Of a DNA stretch of 64,000 nucleotides, positions 2,052 to 12,699 are shown in pieces (the first letter of the stretch is position 1; each line of letters opens with the position of its first letter). The notes beneath the pieces are model-generated. The model saw only the letters and a list, made by a program, of their open reading frames with translations, was not told the origin of the DNA and made no database searches. Origin of the DNA: Bacteroidales bacterium (lineage in GTDB: Bacteria > Bacteroidota > Bacteroidia > Bacteroidales > VadinHA17); the NCBI GenBank assembly GCA_963668715.1, contig OY764960.1, positions 2,959,602 through 3,023,601 on the forward strand, given 5' to 3'. The position numbers and the translations under genes are program-made.

Positions 2052-2059
2052 TAATTTTG
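2052..2059 (+). promoter_or_regulatory. Bacteroidota -7 promoter-like box (TAATTTTG, matches TAnnTTTG)
   Basis: TAATTTTG lies 13 nt upstream of the dinB ATG. No clear -33 TTTG was seen. Confidence 0.35.
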
Positions 2060-2071
2060 CATATAAGTACT

Positions 2072-3136
2072 ATGGAAAGGAAAATACTGCATATCGACAT
2101 GGATGCTTTTTTTGCCTCTGTTGAGCAGAATGACAGACCCGGTCTGAAAGGAAAACCTGTTGTGGTTGGTTCACCTTCTGACAGAGGTGTTATAGCGGCA
2201 GCAAGTTATGAGGCCCGAAAATACGGTGTGAGATCTGCCATGCCAAGTACAACGGCGAAGAGGTTATGCCCGGGGCTTATATTTGTAAAACACAGGATGA
2301 GCCGATATAAAGAAGTTTCTGAAGAGGTGTTTGATATATTCCATTCATATACTTCTTATGTTGAAGCCTTGTCGCTTGATGAAGCATTCCTCGATGTCGG
2401 TATGCTTGCATCTGATATAGATGAAGCTGCCATAATAGCCGGAAAGATTAAGAGTAAGATACGTAATAAAACCGGATTGACCTGTTCCGCAGGTGTATCC
2501 GTTAACAAATTTCTTGCAAAGCTGGCATCGGAAATGGATAAGCCTGACGGATTATATATCATATATCCGTCGGATGTTGATCATCTTATCAGTGAGCTGC
2601 CGATAGAGCGTTTTTTCGGGATAGGCAGAGTAACAGCCGATAAGATGCACAGATTTGGTATTCACACCGGGGCCGATCTTAAAAAAGCCGACAGATCGTT
2701 TCTTGACAGGAATTTTGGAAAGGCAGGATGCTTTTTTTATGATATAGCCAGGGGGATAGATACCAGGGAAGTAGACCCCGGTAGGATACGCAAATCAATA
2801 GGCGCCGAACTGACATTTGAAAAAGATCTCATAACTTCTTTTGAAATAATTGCTGAATTGTACAAGCTTGAAAAGGAACTATGGTCAAGGATACAAAAAT
2901 ATGGAAAGACGGGCCGAACAGTAACAGTAAAGGCAAAATTTGACGATTTCACGCAGATTACAAGAAGTAACACTACTGATATCCTGATAGACAGCTTCGA
3001 TCTTCTTCATACCGAAACGGTAAAGCTGAGGAACCAGATAGATTTTAAAAGGAAAAAAGTAAGGTTGCTGGGTGTGACCGTTTCCGGACTGGAAGATGAA
3101 CATCATGATGATGAGCAGCTAAAGATATGGGAATGA
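2072..3136 (+). CDS. dinB: DNA polymerase IV (Y-family translesion polymerase)
   Basis: MERKILHIDMDAFFASVEQ, SLDEAFLDV and the length (~354 aa) are typical of DinB. I prefer the ATG at 2072 over the TTG at 2057 used in the ORF track. Confidence 0.9.
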   Translation: MERKILHIDMDAFFASVEQNDRPGLKGKPVVVGSPSDRGVIAAASYEARKYGVRSAMPSTTAKRLCPGLIFVKHRMSRYKEVSEEVFDIFHSYTSYVEALSLDEAFLDVGMLASDIDEAAIIAGKIKSKIRNKTGLTCSAGVSVNKFLAKLASEMDKPDGLYIIYPSDVDHLISELPIERFFGIGRVTADKMHRFGIHTGADLKKADRSFLDRNFGKAGCFFYDIARGIDTREVDPGRIRKSIGAELTFEKDLITSFEIIAELYKLEKELWSRIQKYGKTGRTVTVKAKFDDFTQITRSNTTDILIDSFDLLHTETVKLRNQIDFKRKKVRLLGVTVSGLEDEHHDDEQLKIWE

Positions 3137-3151
3137 TATATTGATTATAAT

Positions 3152-3209
3152 ATTTCACCACAGGGAAACACTTATTGTTACGGTGTTCCACTGTGGTGAA
3201 ATAGTTTTT
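3152..3209 (+). terminator. Rho-independent terminator hairpin between convergent dinB and the riboswitch-operon end
   Basis: ATTTCACCACAG (3152-3163) pairs with CTGTGGTGAAAT (3191-3202). An inner GGAAACAC/GTGTTCC extension is present, followed by AGTTTTT. Confidence 0.6.
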
Positions 3210-3231: not shown

Positions 3232-5301
3232 CTATTCGGATGTCCAGTGTCCGTCCAGCAGATCCTGGTATGTCGGATTATAGCTATTACCTGTTATAAC
3301 CCAGTCATCAGCCGTGAATGATGAAACGCAATTACTTAAACCCGAGTAATCAACAAGAGCTTCATTGTATTTTATTGTTATTCCTCCCGTGTTGGTTAAA
3401 GCAGAGAATCCGTCCAGATTAGTAATTGTTGTATTTGTACGGTAACTATCTGCCGATATTGTCAGTATGCCTTCAACGGTTGTCAGTGAAGGCAACTGGA
3501 TATCTGAAATATATCCCCTGTACAGTTGGGTTTTTATACTAAAGTCGCCATGTACTTTTTCAAGTGAAGACAGGCTGAAAACGCCCCCGTCTGCGAAACC
3601 GGTTTGGACCTCCATAGTCCCGACTTCTTTTAATACAGGTATATCAATTGTCGAGCTGTTTTGTAAATAAAATTTACCCCCAACTTCTTCAAGGTCAGGC
3701 AGACTGAATGTTCCTGAGATGTTGGATAAATACAGGCCAAGATCTTCTGTTACCCTGGTGAATCCCATTGTTAAGTCAGTAACATTGCTGTCTGTATTAT
3801 ATCCATATATTGTTACTTTGGTAACTTCTTTGAAACCTGTTATTTCCGCGTTGGAATAATAAAGGTACAGTGTGCCGTCAAATACATCATTGCCCTTAAG
3901 AGAGAAAGAGTTATATATATTTCTCAAATCAATGCTTTCCAGTCCGTCGAAACCTGTAACATCTATTTCTTCAATAGAAGTATTCTGACTATCGTTATAT
4001 ATATAAACTGAAGAAACAGAGCTTAAAGAACTAAAGTCTTCAAGATTGACAAATGGAGTCTGGTATATTGTTAATCCGCTAACTGAGACCAGTGAAGATA
4101 ATCCTGAAAAATTTTCAATAAGATATAAATATCTAAGAGTCAGTTCTTCTCCTACTGTTGTTACAGAATTCAGCCCGTCGAGATCGGCGAGAACAGAAAG
4201 ACTGCTGAGGTACATATTGCCGTAAACAGTTGTCAGTGATGACATATCCAGGCCTGTAAGTACATTCATATCGGATAGAGATACTTCATCAAGTACTATC
4301 TGAAGATTAGGCATGCTAATTGTTTTAACCGAATCCATCCTGGAGATGTCCACGGATGTTGCCATTGTCAGTTCAGGACAGGACAGACTGTTTACAAATG
4401 GCCAGTATGAGCAGGTAAGTACGCCTCCTACGTTTTTCAGGACCGGGAATTCAATCTCTGTCATACCTTTATTTTTGCTCGAACCATAGAAGTACAGATC
4501 TGAAACGACATTTTCCAGCTTGGGAAAATCGACAGATGCAAGTGAATCGGCATTTGAAATCCTAATGCCGTTGCCGACATCAGTCAGTTCGGGAAACTCA
4601 AGTGTTTTGATCCTTTTATTAGATACTGTCAGATCAGACATAATACTGACAAGTGCAGGGAATGATACATCTTCGAGATATTCAAGACTGTTAATATGAA
4701 CCGATCCTGCTTTTTCAAGATTTTCCAGTCCTGTCAGATCAGTCCCTTTGTAGGTCTGATTTATTATCAGGTCATAGTTTACTATTTTCAGTTCCGACAG
4801 GGAAGACAACGATGATATTGAATCTTCTCCCGTTGACATCCCTATTATAAGGTTCCCGTTTATCTCATTAATCTCAAGAGCAGCGAATGCTTCCACGTCG
4901 GCTTGCGTAATAAGTGTTACGTCACCATCATTAACCACGTTGGTCCTTTCAACAGAATAATAATAAACATGGGATGTTTTTTCATATGATGTTATTGTAA
5001 ATGTATATGGTTGATCCCAGTCTGTAACAGCAGAAGGGGAAGGCCTTACGATAGCATTCTCACTTATTGTAATGCTTACTTCAGCACCATCGAGAGACAG
5101 GTTGGCAGGAGCTTTTACTATAATGCTGTCTTCAGATATATGGCCATACAGAATAATATCACCCTGTGTCAGTTCAAAAGAAGAAATAAAATTATCATCT
5201 CCTGTAAAAATAATCTCATCGCGGCTACAGTTATAGAACAGGACAGCCATAAGCAATAAGACAACGAGCTTTTTTATATTATTATATTTCATGATTTCCA
5301 T
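3232..5301 (-). CDS. Predicted surface lipoprotein with leucine-rich / receptor-L-domain-like solenoid repeats (paralog 1)
   Basis: Signal peptide plus lipobox (LFYNCSRDE). An ~100-aa N-terminal beta domain is followed by ~20 degenerate repeats of about 22-24 aa (e.g. LxxLxxVxGxLxI). The C-terminal motif is GNSYNPTYQDLLDGHWT. It is a paralog of 5317..7407. Confidence 0.6.
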   Translation of the reverse strand: MEIMKYNNIKKLVVLLLMAVLFYNCSRDEIIFTGDDNFISSFELTQGDIILYGHISEDSIIVKAPANLSLDGAEVSITISENAIVRPSPSAVTDWDQPYTFTITSYEKTSHVYYYSVERTNVVNDGDVTLITQADVEAFAALEINEINGNLIIGMSTGEDSISSLSSLSELKIVNYDLIINQTYKGTDLTGLENLEKAGSVHINSLEYLEDVSFPALVSIMSDLTVSNKRIKTLEFPELTDVGNGIRISNADSLASVDFPKLENVVSDLYFYGSSKNKGMTEIEFPVLKNVGGVLTCSYWPFVNSLSCPELTMATSVDISRMDSVKTISMPNLQIVLDEVSLSDMNVLTGLDMSSLTTVYGNMYLSSLSVLADLDGLNSVTTVGEELTLRYLYLIENFSGLSSLVSVSGLTIYQTPFVNLEDFSSLSSVSSVYIYNDSQNTSIEEIDVTGFDGLESIDLRNIYNSFSLKGNDVFDGTLYLYYSNAEITGFKEVTKVTIYGYNTDSNVTDLTMGFTRVTEDLGLYLSNISGTFSLPDLEEVGGKFYLQNSSTIDIPVLKEVGTMEVQTGFADGGVFSLSSLEKVHGDFSIKTQLYRGYISDIQLPSLTTVEGILTISADSYRTNTTITNLDGFSALTNTGGITIKYNEALVDYSGLSNCVSSFTADDWVITGNSYNPTYQDLLDGHWTSE

Positions 5302-5316
5302 ATTTGTAGGTTAAAA

Positions 5317-7407
5317 TTATTCATGTGTCCAGCTTCCGGAGGTCATATCCTCGTATGTCGGGTTATATGCATTGTCAGATACATTCCATTCGAAAGAAGA
5401 AAAAGAGGAAATACAATTCTTAAGGCCTTCAAATGAAGCTAAAGCCGACTGATTGGTTATATTAACGCCTGCAACGCTGGTAAGTGCAAGAAAGCCGTCG
5501 AGATCATCCATAAGCGTATTGTACCTTGAATAATTGGGATATGACATAATCGTAAGTATCCCTCCTATTGATTCGAGTGATTCAAATAAAGCCGAAGAGA
5601 GGCTGGTTGCAGTATATCCTGTAGCGAGTGTAAAATTGCCGCTTACCGATTCAAGGGCAGGGAAGCTCAGGGTCTGAACATATTGTGATAATACCTTCAC
5701 ATCAAAATCACCGTCTATTGTCTTAAGCTTTGGAAATTCCATAGTTTCATCTGTTACCCTGTTAAAATGATTAATAATAAAATCTCCTCCGACTTCTTCA
5801 AGGTCGGGAAGGTAGAACCCTGTTTCATTACCGTTTGGCAGATGAAAACCTTTATTTATTTTTTTTATCCCCGCGACATTAACTGAAGTTGAAGTACTCA
5901 GATATCCGCCGAATGAAAGGGAGTCGACTGTACTAAAGCCTTCCAGTTCAGGGAATGCTACGATTATTCCACTGGACACTGATTCATACTGGATACATAA
6001 AGTGCCATGGAAGTCATCATCTCCGATTATTTTTACTCCTTCTGACAGAGCCGATCTTGCAAGGGTTAACTGTCCCAGATCAAGACCCTGTACATATATC
6101 TCAGAAGGTGGGGGAGAATTATAATTATAGAATTTAAGCTCACCTATGCTTGTAAGTGATGAAGGAGCGACAAATGTCTCCATATTAGTTAAGTTATAAA
6201 TAGTAAAAATTCCCCCCACTGAGGTAAGAGAAGGCAGGCAATCAAGATTCCTGATCTTCAGATATTGTAAATAAAGATCATTAGTAACACTGGTAAGTGC
6301 AGACAAGTCAAGATTTTGAAGGCCACTTGTTTCCAGGTCTATGCCTCCTGCCTGCGTTAAGGACGGGAAGCTTAGCTCGGGAATTGATGGTGAATAGATA
6401 TCAATTATTTCAGTGACTTCATGCAGCAAGGGGCAATGTAACAGCATAAGTGACGGCATGTAGTAGATATGTAATCTTGCTGTACTTTTCAGTTCCGGCA
6501 ATTTAAGCTTTGTCGCTTCAGGAAAGCGTGCGAAATATAATTCTCCGGCTTCTTCAAGCCATGGTAATGATACCTCAGAAATATCACCTTTCGAATATGC
6601 ATCGAGTATCTCCAGCCTGCCGCCTGTGTAATGAAGGTTATCGAGAGACAGACTACTCAGGGGGCAGTCTATTGTTGCATCGTTGGAAATACTTGTTAAT
6701 TCACTAAACTGTACTGATGTAATAACTTCGCTTTTGAGATAAATACCTCCCACTGTTTTAAGTCCGGGGAAAGAGACATCGGACAGTGTTTCGATATAAT
6801 CTATTCTTATTTCACCGCCGACTGCCTCAAGCTGGTCAAGTCCGGTAAAATCACTTCCCGAATAAGTAGGATTAATGATAACAGAATAGCCTACTGACTT
6901 TAACTCAGACAGAGCCGAGAGTGACGTAATAGAATCGGTACCAACGGTACGGCCGATAACAAGATTACCTGCTATCGATGTTTTGCCAAGCTCGCCGAAA
7001 GCATCAACTTCGTCCTGGGTTGATAAGACCACTGTCCCTTCGGCATTTATACTGTTTCTGTTTACAGAGTACTGATATAATTTACGGTTACCGTTATAGG
7101 AAGTTACTCCGAATAGTATTTCATCATCCCAGTCGGTTATTGTTTCGGGATCGGGATTAATAGATGCATTTTCGCTAATTGAATAGTTGACAGTTGCCCC
7201 GTCCAGTGATATGTCATCGGGAATGGTCACAATAAGGCTGTCGCCATAAAATGTAACGTTATATGTATTTCCATCCTTTTCAAGCTTAAAGGAAGTTATA
7301 TAATTATCCCGTCCGTCAAAGATAGACGGGTCTTCCGTACATCCTGTAAAAATAAGGCATACAGCAAGTATGGCAATTATAGTTTGTTTTAGTACTGACT
7401 TTTTCAT
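5317..7407 (-). CDS. Predicted surface lipoprotein with leucine-rich / receptor-L-domain-like solenoid repeats (paralog 2)
   Basis: Lipobox IFTGCTEDPS. The architecture and C-terminal motif (SDNAYNPTYEDMTSGSWT) match 3232..5301. The gap to that downstream paralog is 15 nt and the gap to the upstream gene is 21 nt. Confidence 0.6.
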   Translation of the reverse strand: MKKSVLKQTIIAILAVCLIFTGCTEDPSIFDGRDNYITSFKLEKDGNTYNVTFYGDSLIVTIPDDISLDGATVNYSISENASINPDPETITDWDDEILFGVTSYNGNRKLYQYSVNRNSINAEGTVVLSTQDEVDAFGELGKTSIAGNLVIGRTVGTDSITSLSALSELKSVGYSVIINPTYSGSDFTGLDQLEAVGGEIRIDYIETLSDVSFPGLKTVGGIYLKSEVITSVQFSELTSISNDATIDCPLSSLSLDNLHYTGGRLEILDAYSKGDISEVSLPWLEEAGELYFARFPEATKLKLPELKSTARLHIYYMPSLMLLHCPLLHEVTEIIDIYSPSIPELSFPSLTQAGGIDLETSGLQNLDLSALTSVTNDLYLQYLKIRNLDCLPSLTSVGGIFTIYNLTNMETFVAPSSLTSIGELKFYNYNSPPPSEIYVQGLDLGQLTLARSALSEGVKIIGDDDFHGTLCIQYESVSSGIIVAFPELEGFSTVDSLSFGGYLSTSTSVNVAGIKKINKGFHLPNGNETGFYLPDLEEVGGDFIINHFNRVTDETMEFPKLKTIDGDFDVKVLSQYVQTLSFPALESVSGNFTLATGYTATSLSSALFESLESIGGILTIMSYPNYSRYNTLMDDLDGFLALTSVAGVNITNQSALASFEGLKNCISSFSSFEWNVSDNAYNPTYEDMTSGSWTHE

Positions 7408-7428: not shown

Positions 7429-9102
7429 TTAATAAAGATGATAGTCATAAGGTGTTCCGGCTTCGCATGATATCTCGCCGACAGCGCTTCCTTTGCCTAT
7501 CATTGCAGTATGTACCTTTACAAAATCGATATATTGCAGATCTATCTCACTGCCGTCTGCCTGAATGGCATTTTCTATAAAAAACAGTGAATTATCTGTT
7601 ACTCCGTCGCCGTAATTATCGACATAACCCCAGTCATAACCGGGAGAGCTTTCTATTTCATCCACCTGCATTGTTGAGGCCAGGCATGTTCCGCATAATG
7701 TATACGAATCTTCTTCGATGAACATAGGGAAATAATAATCCTGGGAATGATAACTGTTATAGTCGACAGAGCTTATTCTTCCGAGATTATCTGTCCACAA
7801 TACATTTTGTTTAGGCTCACCGGGTTTATAATAAGTAATAGCGTATCTCAGTTTTGTTTCTTCTTTACCCGACTCACTTCCTTTCAGTTCATACCATGTG
7901 TCGTTTGGCAGTCCGTCGCCGTTTTCATCCTGCATCACCCATACAATGCCGGGCTCAGACCATCCTGCAAAAGCATTTCCCGTAATTTTCAGGTCAGCGC
8001 CTTCCGAATTATCAACGCTATGGTCAAATCCTACAATATAGTAACCGCCATAAGCGCCAATCATAGCTACTGCCGGGATGGCATTCAGGTTGTTAAGCAC
8101 AGATTCCTTTGTTGTCCCTTCCTGGTAATTGATAAACTGTCCGGGGGCAGGTACAAAATCATATACATAATTTATTATTGAGGTACTGTTCTCATCCTTC
8201 GCGCGATAATATGTGCCTTCCTCATCCACACATTCTACATTAGCTGTGGTGCTGACTATTGATTCACCATCGGTTACCTTTACAGTAACCTCGTATGTTC
8301 CTTTTGCAGAGGGTGTAAAAGTGAAGCATTCACCTGTGGCACTTTGAACAGTGCCATCAACAGACCACTGGAAGCTTGCATTGTCGCTGATATTGCATAA
8401 TACAGGAGCCATCACCAGACTTTTCCCGTAGCAAACACTAAAACGCCGGATCTCATCTTTATTCGATTCAATCCTGTATCTGCCATTATCGAAGAATATC
8501 TCAGGCTCCGGACTTGGTAATACATTAATTGTAATCGCGACCATGTCGGCTCCGTCTTCGTTTTCAACCTTTAATGTCAGGTGATAAATGCCGACTTTGT
8601 CCCGGTTAAATACATAAGTGCTTTCTTCCCCGACCAGTTCCCCGTCGGATTTCCATTTATAGGAAGCATCGTCACTGTTCAAAACCGATTCAGGAGAAAT
8701 TTCGGTATCGGTACCAACGTAAGTGGCAATAACCGTATTAATTGTTATTTCAGGTTCAAGCTTATCGCTGACCGTCACTTTAACCTGATCTTCAGCCGAT
8801 CCGTTTTCAGCATCTACCCTGAATGTCAGGAAGTATTCGCCTATCCGTTCCGCGTTGAACAGATAAAAAGTATCAGTGGAAACTATATTACCGTCCAACT
8901 TCCATGAGTAAAAGGCATCAATAGCATTTGTTACACTAGCTCTTAGCGTATCCTGTTTTCCAACCTTGATACGGTATTCATCCATGGAAAAGCCTATCTC
9001 CGGATCCCCGACTTCGACCGGAGGCTCCTTGATACAGGATTGAATGAAAGCTATAGTCAAACCTGCCAACAACAGGATTTTCAGATTTAATAACTTTTTC
9101 AT
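7429..9102 (-). CDS. Lipoprotein with three to four PKD/Ig-like repeats plus a ~250-aa C-terminal domain of unknown function
   Basis: Lipobox IQSCIKEPP. It carries repeated ~85-aa units (YxWKLDG..., YKWKSDGELV..., FQWSVDGT...) typical of PKD-like Ig folds. The C-terminal domain (PAPGQFIN...GYYIVGFDH...PGIVWVMQDENGDG) is one I cannot name. Confidence 0.55.
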   Translation of the reverse strand: MKKLLNLKILLLAGLTIAFIQSCIKEPPVEVGDPEIGFSMDEYRIKVGKQDTLRASVTNAIDAFYSWKLDGNIVSTDTFYLFNAERIGEYFLTFRVDAENGSAEDQVKVTVSDKLEPEITINTVIATYVGTDTEISPESVLNSDDASYKWKSDGELVGEESTYVFNRDKVGIYHLTLKVENEDGADMVAITINVLPSPEPEIFFDNGRYRIESNKDEIRRFSVCYGKSLVMAPVLCNISDNASFQWSVDGTVQSATGECFTFTPSAKGTYEVTVKVTDGESIVSTTANVECVDEEGTYYRAKDENSTSIINYVYDFVPAPGQFINYQEGTTKESVLNNLNAIPAVAMIGAYGGYYIVGFDHSVDNSEGADLKITGNAFAGWSEPGIVWVMQDENGDGLPNDTWYELKGSESGKEETKLRYAITYYKPGEPKQNVLWTDNLGRISSVDYNSYHSQDYYFPMFIEEDSYTLCGTCLASTMQVDEIESSPGYDWGYVDNYGDGVTDNSLFFIENAIQADGSEIDLQYIDFVKVHTAMIGKGSAVGEISCEAGTPYDYHLY

Positions 9103-9163: not shown

Positions 9164-10354
9164 TTACAGACCGAGGAGTCTTTCCCTGGTAAAGACAATA
9201 TGAGCGGGGATATCACCTGTTACTGCCTCCCACTTTTTATTGCCTTCAGCATCGAAGCAGTAAACTGTCCCGGGAGTTAAATAATCACCGGCATCAGTAA
9301 CAAAGAATTCCCTGGTTTCAGGATTTACAGCAATACCATAAGGCGTTTCGATCATATCTTCCGTACCGTCTTTTATAAAGCTTCTGGATACAACATTTTG
9401 AGTCCCGGTATTAAAAAGAGTATAGGATACGGTTGTTGATCCTGTATCATAGTTGAACTCCGTGCTGCATATATATAATGAATCGCCGCACAGAGCAAGG
9501 TCACTGGCAGGTATGTTAAGTACATCTGAGACCCTGTCTTTATCAGGGTCAATAACATATATCTTAGACTCCGTATCATAATAGTCTCCCCGTGAGCTAA
9601 CATATATATTATCATAGTTGTCGATCTCCATACGGTGAAGATTAATACCGGCGATAATCTTGTTTGTCTCGGTGAAGGATTCAAGATCAATTACCGAAAC
9701 AGTATTATCATAGTCAGGCACCCTGTATCCTCCCGAGTTGGCTACATACAGTTTATTATTATAAATCACCATTTCTTCGGGTTGGTAGCCTACATTACAG
9801 GTGTCAATAATCTCATAAGTGGCAGTATCAATTTTAGCGACATAACCGAGCCTGGCATTTGGGTCGATAAGCACAGGCCCTGAATATGAGCTGACGTATG
9901 CATAATTTTTATCAAAGACTATGTAACGGCAGTTCGGGACTGTAATGGAAGTAATATGTTCTGCGGTATTAACATCCATTACCTCAATCAGGTTTGAGCA
10001 GTTTATGACTGCATATAGTTTATTTCCGTATATCTGTATGTCATTACCGACATCTCCAAGTTCATGTGTCACATAAGGATTCCTGTCTGCATAGATATTT
10101 TTATAATAGACCCCTGTTTCGTAGTCAAAATAATCCAGGCTTGCTTTATTACTCCCCATATTTCCCTCATTAAGAAGGAAAAAGCCTCTTACAGAGTCTG
10201 TTTCATTACTGCCGGCGCCTACATCTGTAGCATCCGGTTTAATGATGGGATCATCTTTCCGGCATGAATGGATAAGAATGAAAAGCGGAAATACCAATAA
10301 TATTACGATTGTTTCCGGTTTGGATCTGAAAAAATAATTTACACTGGTTTTCAT
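9164..10354 (-). CDS. YncE-like beta-propeller surface lipoprotein, BtuG-like candidate
   Basis: Lipobox LIHSCRKDD, whose K-D-D matches the Bacteroidota lipoprotein export signal. Repeated propeller-blade-like segments are present (LNEGNMGSN..., GDVGNDIQIYGNKLYAV..., LYVANSGG...). It lies immediately downstream of, and overlaps by 4 nt with, the riboswitch-controlled TonB-dependent receptor, as btuG does relative to btuB in Bacteroides. Confidence 0.6.
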   Translation of the reverse strand: MKTSVNYFFRSKPETIVILLVFPLFILIHSCRKDDPIIKPDATDVGAGSNETDSVRGFFLLNEGNMGSNKASLDYFDYETGVYYKNIYADRNPYVTHELGDVGNDIQIYGNKLYAVINCSNLIEVMDVNTAEHITSITVPNCRYIVFDKNYAYVSSYSGPVLIDPNARLGYVAKIDTATYEIIDTCNVGYQPEEMVIYNNKLYVANSGGYRVPDYDNTVSVIDLESFTETNKIIAGINLHRMEIDNYDNIYVSSRGDYYDTESKIYVIDPDKDRVSDVLNIPASDLALCGDSLYICSTEFNYDTGSTTVSYTLFNTGTQNVVSRSFIKDGTEDMIETPYGIAVNPETREFFVTDAGDYLTPGTVYCFDAEGNKKWEAVTGDIPAHIVFTRERLLGL

Positions 10355-12366
10355 ATTGTTACGGTAATAATGAATTTATAATTTATGCCAGGCATAGGAT
10401 AGCACTGAACAACTTCATATTGTTGGTTGAAAAGATTATTAACCTCGGCAGTAAGCCTTATATCATGGTTATTGCGTTTTGTTTTCCATGAGAGGGAAAG
10501 ATCGCTGGTATACCATGGCTGAGTATAGTTCTCGACTATATTGGCTTGCGACTCATACCGCTCGCCGGTATAAATGAAACTATAATTTAGTTCCCATTTT
10601 TTATAGCTGCTGTTAATTATCAGCGAACCGCTGTGCCAGGGAATGTAAGGTATTTGCCCTCCGTAATAATTACTTGCAGGATCAGTGAAATCCTGAGCTT
10701 TCTGGTATGTATAACTGATCCTTGCATCCAGTAAAAAATCATTACCAATATTAAAGCTATTCAAAGCAGAAAGATCAAACCCTCTTATTTCAACATACCC
10801 CAGGTTGACCATAGTCCATCTGAACTGGTTTGATGTGGGCATTGCTACAATTTTATCGGATACTGTGTTGTAATATGCATCGAGCTGTATCTCTATGTTT
10901 TTTAAGTGTTTAAGCGATGTCTCCGTGGAATATGTCATTCCCAGGTTATATTGAGTGGTATATTCAGGATCAAGGTCTGCGTTACCTATGAAAGTATAAT
11001 ACAGGTCATTCAGGGTAGGCATCCTGAAGATATGCTTATAAAAGGCACGCAGGTTAAAATCATGTGTTTTCCATGGTTTGAAGGAAGCAATGACTGTTGG
11101 AGTGAGCTTATTCTTATCGTCAGCAGCATTTTCTCCGGTAAGGGTTTCTTCGTGAACATAAGTGTCCAGAATACTTGCCTGAATTTTAAAACGGTCGAAA
11201 TGCAGGGCAGTTGCCAATGCAATCAGGCCGGTATACCTTCGGGGATAGACAAAGCCATACAGATCAGCATTGAGCAGGTTCCATTGAAAATCAGTTGAAA
11301 TGTTAACTTCCCAGAAGGGGAGGATAAAATAGCGATTGGCTGACGAAATGTATATTTCATGCTGATAATAATGATTATTTATGTACATGGTTGAGATATC
11401 CAGTTCGGGATCGGATAAGTAGTGCAGGTAATCGTATGCATACTTGCATTTGAACATGGTGCTGAACTTATTAAAGGATTTTTTGAAGGAAGACTGGAGG
11501 AAGATGTTGGTATCCCATTGTCTGTCCTGATTTTTAAAGCGTCCGGGTTCTTCTCTTACACAGGCTCCAGGGTATCCTCTTTCGGAGTTATAGAAATAAA
11601 GCTTAGCGTCCCAGTACCCATTGTTATTTAATTTGCCATTCAAGCCATATTCGACCCTTATTGCCTCAACGTCACCGTTCTGTCTTATTGCAGTTGTGTC
11701 ATAGCCATCCTTTTTTGTATAAGTAAATTTGTATTTGCCGTTGGTGTGCATGTATTCAGCATTTATTGAGCCTGACAATGATTCCCTGAGTTTTTTTTCG
11801 AAAAGGATTGATGGGTTGAAGACCCCGAAAGAACCTGTTTTTATTTTTGCCCGGAGATTGGTTGTTTTACAACTGTCAAAAGCAGGTTTCTTCGTCTGCA
11901 GATACAGGGCCCCTGCAGATCCGTAATCCCTGGCAGACTGAAATATTTTGCTTCTTTGCCCGTTATAGACCGAAACCGATTCCATATTATCAAGAGAGAA
12001 CCTGCCGAGATCAATGATACCGTTTTGGGCATTGCCCAATTGAACATCATCATAAAAAATACCTACATGCTGGCTTCCCATGCTTCTGATGTTCACTGTC
12101 TTTAAGCCTCCGATACCCCCGTAGTCCTTTATCTGTATTCCCGAAAAATATCTTATGGCATCGGAAACCGAGTGTACGCTTAGTTTTTGCAGTTCCTTTC
12201 CCTTAAGCATCTGGACAGGAATAACTTCTTTTTCAACCCGGCGGGCTGTTACCACAACTTCATCTATATGTTGTATACTGTCAAGCCTGCTTTGTGAGTT
12301 GGCAGGACATGACACAAAGAGTAAAAAAGCAATTATCAAAAAAATAACATATCCCCGGTCTAACAT
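10351..12366 (-). CDS. btuB: TonB-dependent outer-membrane receptor, cobalamin type (riboswitch-controlled)
   Basis: Signal peptide, plug-domain motifs (DEVVVTARR, VSDAIRYFSGIQIKDYGG, IRSMGSQHVGIFYDDV) and a 671-aa beta-barrel length. A cobalamin riboswitch lies ~140 nt upstream on the same strand. Confidence 0.8.
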   Translation of the reverse strand: MLDRGYVIFLIIAFLLFVSCPANSQSRLDSIQHIDEVVVTARRVEKEVIPVQMLKGKELQKLSVHSVSDAIRYFSGIQIKDYGGIGGLKTVNIRSMGSQHVGIFYDDVQLGNAQNGIIDLGRFSLDNMESVSVYNGQRSKIFQSARDYGSAGALYLQTKKPAFDSCKTTNLRAKIKTGSFGVFNPSILFEKKLRESLSGSINAEYMHTNGKYKFTYTKKDGYDTTAIRQNGDVEAIRVEYGLNGKLNNNGYWDAKLYFYNSERGYPGACVREEPGRFKNQDRQWDTNIFLQSSFKKSFNKFSTMFKCKYAYDYLHYLSDPELDISTMYINNHYYQHEIYISSANRYFILPFWEVNISTDFQWNLLNADLYGFVYPRRYTGLIALATALHFDRFKIQASILDTYVHEETLTGENAADDKNKLTPTVIASFKPWKTHDFNLRAFYKHIFRMPTLNDLYYTFIGNADLDPEYTTQYNLGMTYSTETSLKHLKNIEIQLDAYYNTVSDKIVAMPTSNQFRWTMVNLGYVEIRGFDLSALNSFNIGNDFLLDARISYTYQKAQDFTDPASNYYGGQIPYIPWHSGSLIINSSYKKWELNYSFIYTGERYESQANIVENYTQPWYTSDLSLSWKTKRNNHDIRLTAEVNNLFNQQYEVVQCYPMPGINYKFIITVTI

Positions 12367-12503
12367 TATCAGCCAGTTAAATAATATTCAACAGCTTGCC
12401 GAAAATAAGCACATGAAGAATTTTAAAGATGGCGGGATCGGTTATTGTCCCATATTCTTACGAGTCCTTCAGTTTTATTCCCCGAAAACCAAATAAAATA
12501 TTC

Positions 12504-12685
12504 ATTTTGGCAGGTTTTCTGACTTACTCTGTCTTTGAACGCCCTTCCCATCCCGGGTTTTCGGGACAGTGGATTGAGTATTGTTCAAAGATTTTGGAAG
12601 AGCTTACAGCAGCGGGTCTGTTCAGGATTTACACCTGATTCCCTTTTCACCATTTTTACGAAAATGTAAAATATGGCACCAAAAT
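12504..12685 (-). promoter_or_regulatory. Cobalamin (AdoCbl-type) riboswitch
   Basis: The minus strand reads GGGAATCAGGTGTAAATCCTGAACAGACCCGCTGCTGTAAGC (12643-12602). It continues CCACTGTCCCG...GGGATGGGAAGGGCG and ends with the B12 box AAGTCAGAAAACCTGCC (12525-12509). A P1 helix can form between ATTTTGG (12685-12679) and CCAAAAT (12510-12504). I matched this to the RF00174 consensus from memory only. Confidence 0.85.
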
Positions 12686-12691
12686 CTGTGA

Positions 12692-12699
12692 CAAAAATA
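12692..12699 (-). promoter_or_regulatory. Bacteroidota -7 promoter-like box (TATTTTTG) for the riboswitch operon
   Basis: TATTTTTG on the minus strand ends 6 nt before the predicted P1 5' arm of the riboswitch. Confidence 0.45.

Follow-up and report, generated by a model that had tools for sequence, protein, structure and literature searches.

The two adjacent minus-strand genes at positions 3232–7407 of the 64-kb window analysed here (the whole 64,000-nucleotide stretch of contig OY764960.1, from a Bacteroidales bacterium) almost certainly encode, judging by sequence homology, duplicated members of the family of BtuL, the BT_1955 protein of Bacteroides thetaiotaomicron VPI-5482, a protein that Juodeikis et al. 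named in 2025 and characterised in part (PMC12751083) and that is described as a receptor-L-domain lipoprotein (PMC13616437). The proximal paralogue, P0002 (696 residues; 5317–7407), and the distal one, P0001 (689 residues; 3232–5301), each combine a lipobox cysteine (Cys23 and Cys25, respectively) with an immunoglobulin (Ig)-like domain, a long beta-solenoid of the L-domain or leucine-rich repeat (LRR) kind and a C-terminal cap bearing a YNPTY motif. Taken as a whole, we consider it reasonably probable that this is a tandem BtuL pair, in an operon governed by a cobalamin riboswitch, with a role that depends on protein contacts in vesicle or surface assemblies. An earlier sequence-only reading of this DNA had presented the two proteins as candidate new accessory components of corrinoid capture, and had named no characterised B12-locus protein of this architecture as known to it; neither point survives, as both proteins are full-length homologues of BtuL.

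We located the BT_1955 gene in a Bacteroides chromosome by means of the BT_1955 cloning primers listed in the supplement of PMC12751083; 14 of 250 genomes from the genus to which one of our homologue loci (L051) belongs contain the reverse-primer target, and both primers bracket a 696-residue open reading frame, the neighbours of which encode a DUF4465 protein (BtuJ2), a PKD protein (BtuH2), BtuG, BtuB and BtuF, with a riboswitch upstream. BlastP aligned this protein with P0001 (27% identity, E-value 8e-57, residues 11–689 against 2–695) and with P0002 (24% identity, E-value 4e-44, full length), and an hhalign comparison of the family alignment with BT_1955 gave a probability of 100 and an E-value of 7e-61 over 643 columns, the match spanning both the N-terminal DNFI(T/S)S motif and the C-terminal CGYNPTFQNM...YT cap. 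It is because BT_1955 aligns end to end with both proteins that we assign them to the BtuL family. BtuL shares with them the lipobox, the Ig-like domain, the receptor-L-domain solenoid and a (Y/F)NPT(Y/F) cap, and it is likewise acidic, of similar length (696 residues) and encoded beside btuH and btuG behind a cobalamin riboswitch. It differs in belonging to a single-copy operon of the order J-H-L-G-B(-F) (genes given by their btu letters), whereas the genome studied here has two diverged copies at the end of a B-G-H-L-L operon that, unlike B. thetaiotaomicron operon 2 (btuJ2-btuH2-btuL-btuG2-btuB2-btuFCD-btuX; PMC12751083; PMC13616437), lacks btuJ and btuFCD. The source organism groups in our tree with Prolixibacteraceae and not with gut Bacteroides.

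P0001 and P0002 are 36% identical end to end (E-value 1e-110, BlastP), a similarity far beyond chance, which bears out the description of two adjacent, paralogous lipoproteins of ~690 residues given in the sequence-only reading. As read from their sequences, both carry lipoprotein signal peptides in which the lipobox cysteine is followed by acidic residues (...LFYN-C-SRDEII in P0001 and ...IFTG-C-TEDPS in P0002, compared with ...LGA-C-DKNDE in BtuL), and this cysteine is invariant among the 74 family sequences. Acidic residues after the lipobox cysteine are a surface or vesicle sorting signal of Bacteroidota. The mature proteins are themselves acidic (isoelectric points of 4.06 and 4.19; 4.48 for BtuL), and values of 4.1–4.2 are compatible with, and no proof of, vesicle sorting. 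The start of the distal gene is ambiguous (5292–5301): the first ATG, at 5301, gives 689 residues and the next one, nine bases on, gives 686, which is the length of the database copy of P0001 (beginning MKYNNIKK...), so that the downstream ATG may be the start.

The leucine-rich, L-domain-like repeats of the original description were recovered by Pfam, with Recep_L_domain (PF01030) scoring 28.9 bits in P0001 and 30.6 bits in P0002 against a gathering threshold of 21.8, and BT_1955 also scoring above that threshold. P0001 additionally matched LRR_EndoS (PF23952; 36 bits, gathering threshold 27.9), P0002 had a match to LRR_5 (PF13306) that fell below threshold, and weak DUF5018-like matches were seen at the N-termini of P0002 and BtuL. 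Conserved leucines recur every 22–26 residues (L217, L239, L262, L288, L311 and L333); the autocorrelation of hydrophobicity showed a 23-residue periodicity only weakly in P0001 and not clearly in P0002, and the repeats are better seen in this leucine spacing and in the structural models. The C-terminal motif that had been noted reads ITGNSYNPTYQDLLDGHWTSE in P0001 and VSDNAYNPTYEDMTSGSWTHE in P0002, the proteins ending in ...NSYNPTYQDLLDGHWTSE and ...NAYNPTYEDMTSGSWTHE, and W667, Y674, N675, P676, T677 and G684 are conserved across the 74 family members. The Ig-like domain is the best conserved part; conservation is also high in the cap helix, the opening turns of the solenoid and the C-terminal cap, and the mid-solenoid region, in which homologues differ in repeat number as well, is the least conserved. 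No NCBIfam model matched P0001 or P0002, and a search of P0001 against PDB sequences yielded nothing useful, the best match being to a ribosomal protein with an E-value of 0.37. Some public labels within the family look misleading, e.g., one homologue at the Joint Genome Institute is annotated as "PBP1b-binding outer membrane lipoprotein LpoB", and BT_1955 itself was listed as "Xylanase" in 2014 (Table 2 of PMC3952158); we rejected the xylanase (glycoside hydrolase) and LpoB readings, Pfam having detected no domain in support of either.

AlphaFold2 models, built from a 74-sequence alignment of the homologues collected in this analysis, were of very high confidence for both proteins (predicted local distance difference test, pLDDT, 94.1 and predicted template modelling score, pTM, 0.82 for P0001; 93.7 and 0.81 for P0002). 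Each model consists of a signal helix, a flexible linker after the lipidated cysteine, an Ig-like beta-sandwich (residues 39–120 in P0001 and 37–118 in P0002), which agrees with the N-terminal beta domain proposed from sequence, a short capping helix, a beta-solenoid that runs without a break between residues ~146 and 660 in both, single-stranded and made of ~23-residue repeats, and a small C-terminal cap in which the YNPTY motif sits. The solenoid, of ~20 turns, is expected to give a rod on the order of 100 Å. The sequence-only reading had proposed structure prediction followed by Foldseek, and the outcome was a pair of confident solenoid models (pLDDT ~94); for the complete P0001 model, the PDB yielded partial relatives and none that spans the protein. 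The best Foldseek matches paired ~100 residues of the N-terminal domain with Ig-like domains of Bacteroides surface lipoproteins (8AA2_G, BT_2081 3HBZ and BF4250 3OWR; E-values of 1e-3 to 6e-2), and the solenoid had weak matches to InlA, LGR4, TLR8/9, ErbB3, EGFR and the insulin receptor (TM 0.11–0.23, E-values ≥0.01). Receptor L domains (PF01030; L1/L2 of EGFR and the insulin receptor) and bacterial LRRs (PF23952, PF13306, internalins) are of the same general solenoid class, with no close structural match among them; compared with receptor L domains, the P0001 and P0002 solenoids are much longer and lack Cys-rich regions. The levan utilisome protein 8AA2 chain G, BT_2081, BF4250 and DUF5018 resemble P0001 and P0002 only in the stalk domain; where P0001 and P0002 have the solenoid, lipoproteins of the 8AA2_G, BT_2081 and BF4250 type carry glycan-binding or hydrolase domains, and they are part of polysaccharide-utilisation loci, not B12 loci.

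A pattern scan derived from a 10-sequence alignment, with one genome per GTDB species, identified 57 loci with full-length homologues (25–45% identity) in Prolixibacteraceae, Dysgonomonadaceae, Odoribacteraceae, Prevotellaceae, Rikenellaceae, Bacteroidaceae, Muribaculaceae and Chitinophagaceae, and 15 further loci with partial matches to the L domain only. Every one of the 57 full-length loci had a btuB, btuG or btuH homologue on the same strand, and each of the 13 loci scanned with Rfam had a cobalamin riboswitch (RF00174) upstream of the operon and on its strand, as did two more (L050 and L051) found by whole-genome search; no such btuB, btuG or btuH homologue was found at any of the 15 partial matches, which came from Flavobacteriia and other groups. 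These gene neighbourhoods support a tight tie between the BtuL family and corrinoid-uptake loci. The sequence-only reading had looked to homologues unlinked to btuB or riboswitches as the finding that would speak against a corrinoid role; linkage was instead found at all 57 full-length loci, so that this check does not speak against the role. The same observations bear on the idea that these proteins have no connection with B12, merely adjoin the operon and serve as adhesins, decoys or glycan-active proteins of a generic kind on the cell surface, which we regard as extremely improbable. LRR and L-domain repeat proteins of Bacteroidota are, as is generally known, often adhesin-like, the distant partial matches in Flavobacteriia are to proteins sorted by the type IX secretion system and without btu neighbours, and there is the old "xylanase" listing of BT_1955; however, the genomic btu linkage, joined to riboswitch control, effectively excludes an unrelated adhesin or hydrolase role, Pfam shows no glycoside-hydrolase domain, and B12 starvation induces BtuL 100- to 1000-fold (PMC12751083).

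The family is sparse: a survey with the family profile (E-value ≤1e-30), in which two candidates were scored per genome so that counts are lower bounds, found it in at least 1 of 400 other genomes across the phylum and at least 7 of 400 across the order, and in none of the three sampled genomes of the source's own family, likewise with two candidates scored in each. Four loci of the order J-H-L-G-B-F (L049, L050, L051 and L052) were 99.9–100% identical over 13–15 kb, in genomes labelled Alistipes sp., Phocaeicola coprophilus, Bacteroides propionicigenes and Bacteroides ndongoniae. Such near identity of sequence suggests that an entire B12-uptake locus, btuL included, was transferred horizontally in the recent past, and appears to fit the mobile B12 transporters described in PMC8759732. 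Two loci had irregular genes: in a Mangrovibacterium metagenome-assembled genome (MAG) the btuH match is in two pieces (L017:8351-9984; B-G-H-H-L), possibly because of a frameshift or through misassembly, and genome G753 has a BtuL homologue with an in-frame TAA (C180:2313-4448).

In the window itself, P0002 and P0001 are encoded by the last two in a close-set series of five minus-strand genes that a cobalamin riboswitch precedes. The aptamer, at the head of the operon (12492–12698, minus strand), matched the full Rfam model RF00174 (positions 1–189) with 104.9 bits against a gathering threshold of 31.5 (E-value 3e-25), which confirms the distal position in a B12-riboswitch operon that had been recognised from sequence. 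It is followed on the same strand by btuB (10351–12366), which encodes a 671-residue TonB-dependent outer-membrane B12 transporter with the Pfam domains Plug and TonB_dep_Rec_b-barrel and with TonB-B12 (TIGR01779, 8e-31, under the equivalog cut-off) as its top NCBIfam match; by btuG (9164–10354), for a 396-residue surface beta-propeller B12-binding lipoprotein (Pfam DUF5074) that matched PDB 8BLW_B (2e-41), from the BtuB1G1 complex (PMC10404256), and other BtuG structures in a PDB sequence search; and by btuH (7429–9102), for a 557-residue lipoprotein with three PKD_3 repeats and a C-terminal B12-binding domain, residues 103–548 of which matched PDB 7BIZ (6e-85), the structure of BtuH2 (PMC8941943). 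Based on these matches to BtuH2, BtuG and B12-receptor models, we read the operon as riboswitch-btuB-btuG-btuH followed by the two solenoid lipoprotein genes, with intergenic gaps of 21 and 15 nt. That the pair closes the operon is argued by a hairpin downstream (3154–3200, no strand assigned), the likely operon end, whose perfect 10-bp stem (TTCACCACAG/CTGTGGTGAA) was read from the sequence, and by the convergent gene for a Y-family polymerase (dinB, 2057–3136, plus strand) beyond it, the hairpin lying between dinB and the distal btuL; a terminator scan placed a plus-strand site at 3175–3199, followed by a T run. From this layout, P0001 and P0002 are probably co-transcribed with btuB, btuG and btuH from the cobalamin riboswitch. 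They are the only two BtuL-family copies in the source genome, which has three further cobalamin riboswitches (four in all). A second, distant BtuG-like gene (26% identity) is found ~2 kb downstream of one of these, with no BtuL copy there; these additional features lie at about 1,567,092–1,579,838 and 440,350 of the genome.

Tandem pairs such as this one were found in 25 of the 57 loci, about half of the loci, including that of B. thetaiotaomicron, being single-copy. A maximum-likelihood tree of 75 sequences (quick search, with Shimodaira–Hasegawa-like approximate likelihood ratio test, SH-aLRT, support only) placed P0002 in a proximal clade with the promoter-proximal copies of other pairs (18 rows, SH-aLRT 99) and P0001 in a distal clade with distal copies (11 rows, SH-aLRT 95; a sister group of six more, 92), while the BtuL of B. 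thetaiotaomicron fell into a third clade, that of the single-copy J-H-L-G-B operons. In both paralogue clades the nearest relatives of our proteins are from Prolixibacteraceae MAGs, and each clade spans Prolixibacteraceae, Dysgonomonadaceae, Chitinophagaceae and Prevotellaceae. Because each spans several families, the tree indicates that the duplication is old, or else that the whole operon was moved between lineages, with both copies kept. The two clades have 78 conserved positions in common; only three positions are conserved but different between them, and 12 are conserved in the proximal clade only and one in the distal clade only, which by this alignment-based measure means that the proximal clade is under more clade-specific constraint. 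As the distinguishing positions are too few, we propose no divergent site. A single locus, in a Proteiniphilum MAG (L024:698-13916), has four tandem BtuL-family genes between two btuH genes (G-H-L-L-L-L-H), and the tree distributes these four among different clades. A tandem pair of accessory lipoproteins is also known from B. thetaiotaomicron operon 1, in which BtuK1 binds B12 and BtuK2 does not, which sets a precedent for tandem copies with divided tasks, although the fold of BtuK1 and BtuK2 (PKD plus a seven-bladed propeller) is unrelated to that of P0001 and P0002 and there is no sequence similarity.

What is published on BtuL, which in recent literature appears by name in PMC12751083 and PMC13616437, comes from B. 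thetaiotaomicron. There, cobamide starvation raises BtuL ~100-fold in cells and ~1000-fold in vesicles, recombinant BtuL does not bind cobalamin, and cells deleted for btuL shed fewer vesicles in the early growth phase (all PMC12751083); in an older proteome BT_1955 was found in vesicles only (PMC3952158). In the published model, BtuL drives vesiculation and BtuJ (DUF4465) loads the vesicles with B12 (PMC12751083). The lack of cobalamin binding by recombinant BtuL tells against the role of additional binder that the sequence-only reading had also offered, and we think it very unlikely that one or both paralogues are additional corrinoid binders, perhaps of a cobamide or precursor other than those tried on BtuL. 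Such a role would be in keeping with the other accessory lipoproteins of these operons, most of which (BtuG, BtuH, BtuJ and BtuK1) bind B12 (PMC12751083), with the ability of paralogues to differ, as BtuK1 and BtuK2 do, and with the separation of the P0001 and P0002 clades from that of BtuL. However, no resemblance to a known B12-binding fold was found, Foldseek having returned for the P0001 model Ig-like N-terminal domains and LRR or L-domain receptors at TM <0.25, and the conserved positions are mostly structural leucine, glycine and proline residues together with the Ig domain and the cap.

Gene order gives a further indication of the likely partner. Among the 54 loci with enough upstream DNA, btuH stands immediately 5' of the first btuL in 50, and this adjacency holds across the orders B-G-H-L-L, J-H-L-G-B-F and J-G-H-L-B-F; G-H-B-L-L occurs too. 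DUF4465, the BtuJ domain, had no match anywhere in the source genome, in a search whose control was positive in B. thetaiotaomicron, and was not found in seven of the 10 other genomes with tandem btuL pairs. As adjacency to btuH is conserved and BtuJ is often not found, the BtuL family, by these genomic comparisons, tracks BtuH and not BtuJ. The conserved adjacency also favours the scaffold option among those that the sequence-only reading had listed. In one account of this kind, P0001 and P0002, which may join as a heteromer, serve BtuH specifically as its docking or scaffold partners, holding it off the membrane or at BtuBG, with the vesicle phenotype secondary. Here btuH keeps its place directly before btuL although btuB and btuG move, the family is present without BtuJ, L-domain and LRR solenoids are by general knowledge typical protein-binding modules, and both paralogue clades are kept together in the loci with pairs. 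Against this, operon neighbours share a history with or without physical contact, about half of the loci have one copy, and BtuH also occurs in loci without BtuL, e.g., B. thetaiotaomicron locus 1 (PMC8941943); we judge the account somewhat unlikely. Its fullest form, in which BtuL proteins are primarily BtuH-docking scaffolds, the pair studied here forms a heteromeric rod that presents BtuH above BtuBG for a BtuJ-independent hand-off, and the vesicle phenotype in B. thetaiotaomicron is a by-product of crowding in the outer leaflet, seems to us unlikely.

The mechanism that we tentatively prefer is that P0001 and P0002 are acidic, surface- or vesicle-sorted rods that act through protein contacts, most likely with BtuH. 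The two proteins would be made when B12 is scarce, because they are probably co-transcribed from the cobalamin riboswitch, and, by analogy with BtuL of B. thetaiotaomicron, would both be exported to the cell surface and to outer-membrane vesicles, where, according to the models, the Ig-like stalk may hold the beta-solenoid rod on its lipid anchor. Again by analogy with BtuL, they would themselves bind no corrinoid; contacts with BtuH, encoded directly upstream, are the likeliest, judging by gene order, and through these or other contacts the proteins may promote the release or the organisation of vesicles or surface assemblies carrying B12 binders, which would extend corrinoid capture beyond the BtuBG transporter. 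Several points weigh against this mechanism. The vesicle role of BtuL comes from a single paper and is an effect in the early growth phase, and a 2026 review calls its mechanism entirely uncharacterised (PMC13616437). Identity to BtuL is 24–27%, and BtuL is in a third clade apart from both paralogues, so that function may have diverged from that of BtuL. As BtuJ, the published cargo, was not found here, vesicles would need to carry BtuH or BtuG instead, unless the role differs. Finally, we infer the partnership with BtuH solely from gene adjacency.

BtuL is the least understood named part of the B12-capture machinery of Bacteroidota, and three of our observations on its family seem to be new: that an old duplication has been kept as two orthologous clades across several families, that btuH lies directly upstream of the first btuL in 50 of 54 loci, whatever the order of btuB and btuG, and that the family is present in genomes without a BtuJ (DUF4465) match, including the source genome. 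These comparisons provide leads beyond PMC12751083 and PMC13616437, showing a family that reaches past gut Bacteroides, is always tied to btu genes, follows btuH and is often present as a diverged pair, and they bear on the route by which BtuL acts, through vesicles loaded by BtuJ or through BtuH.

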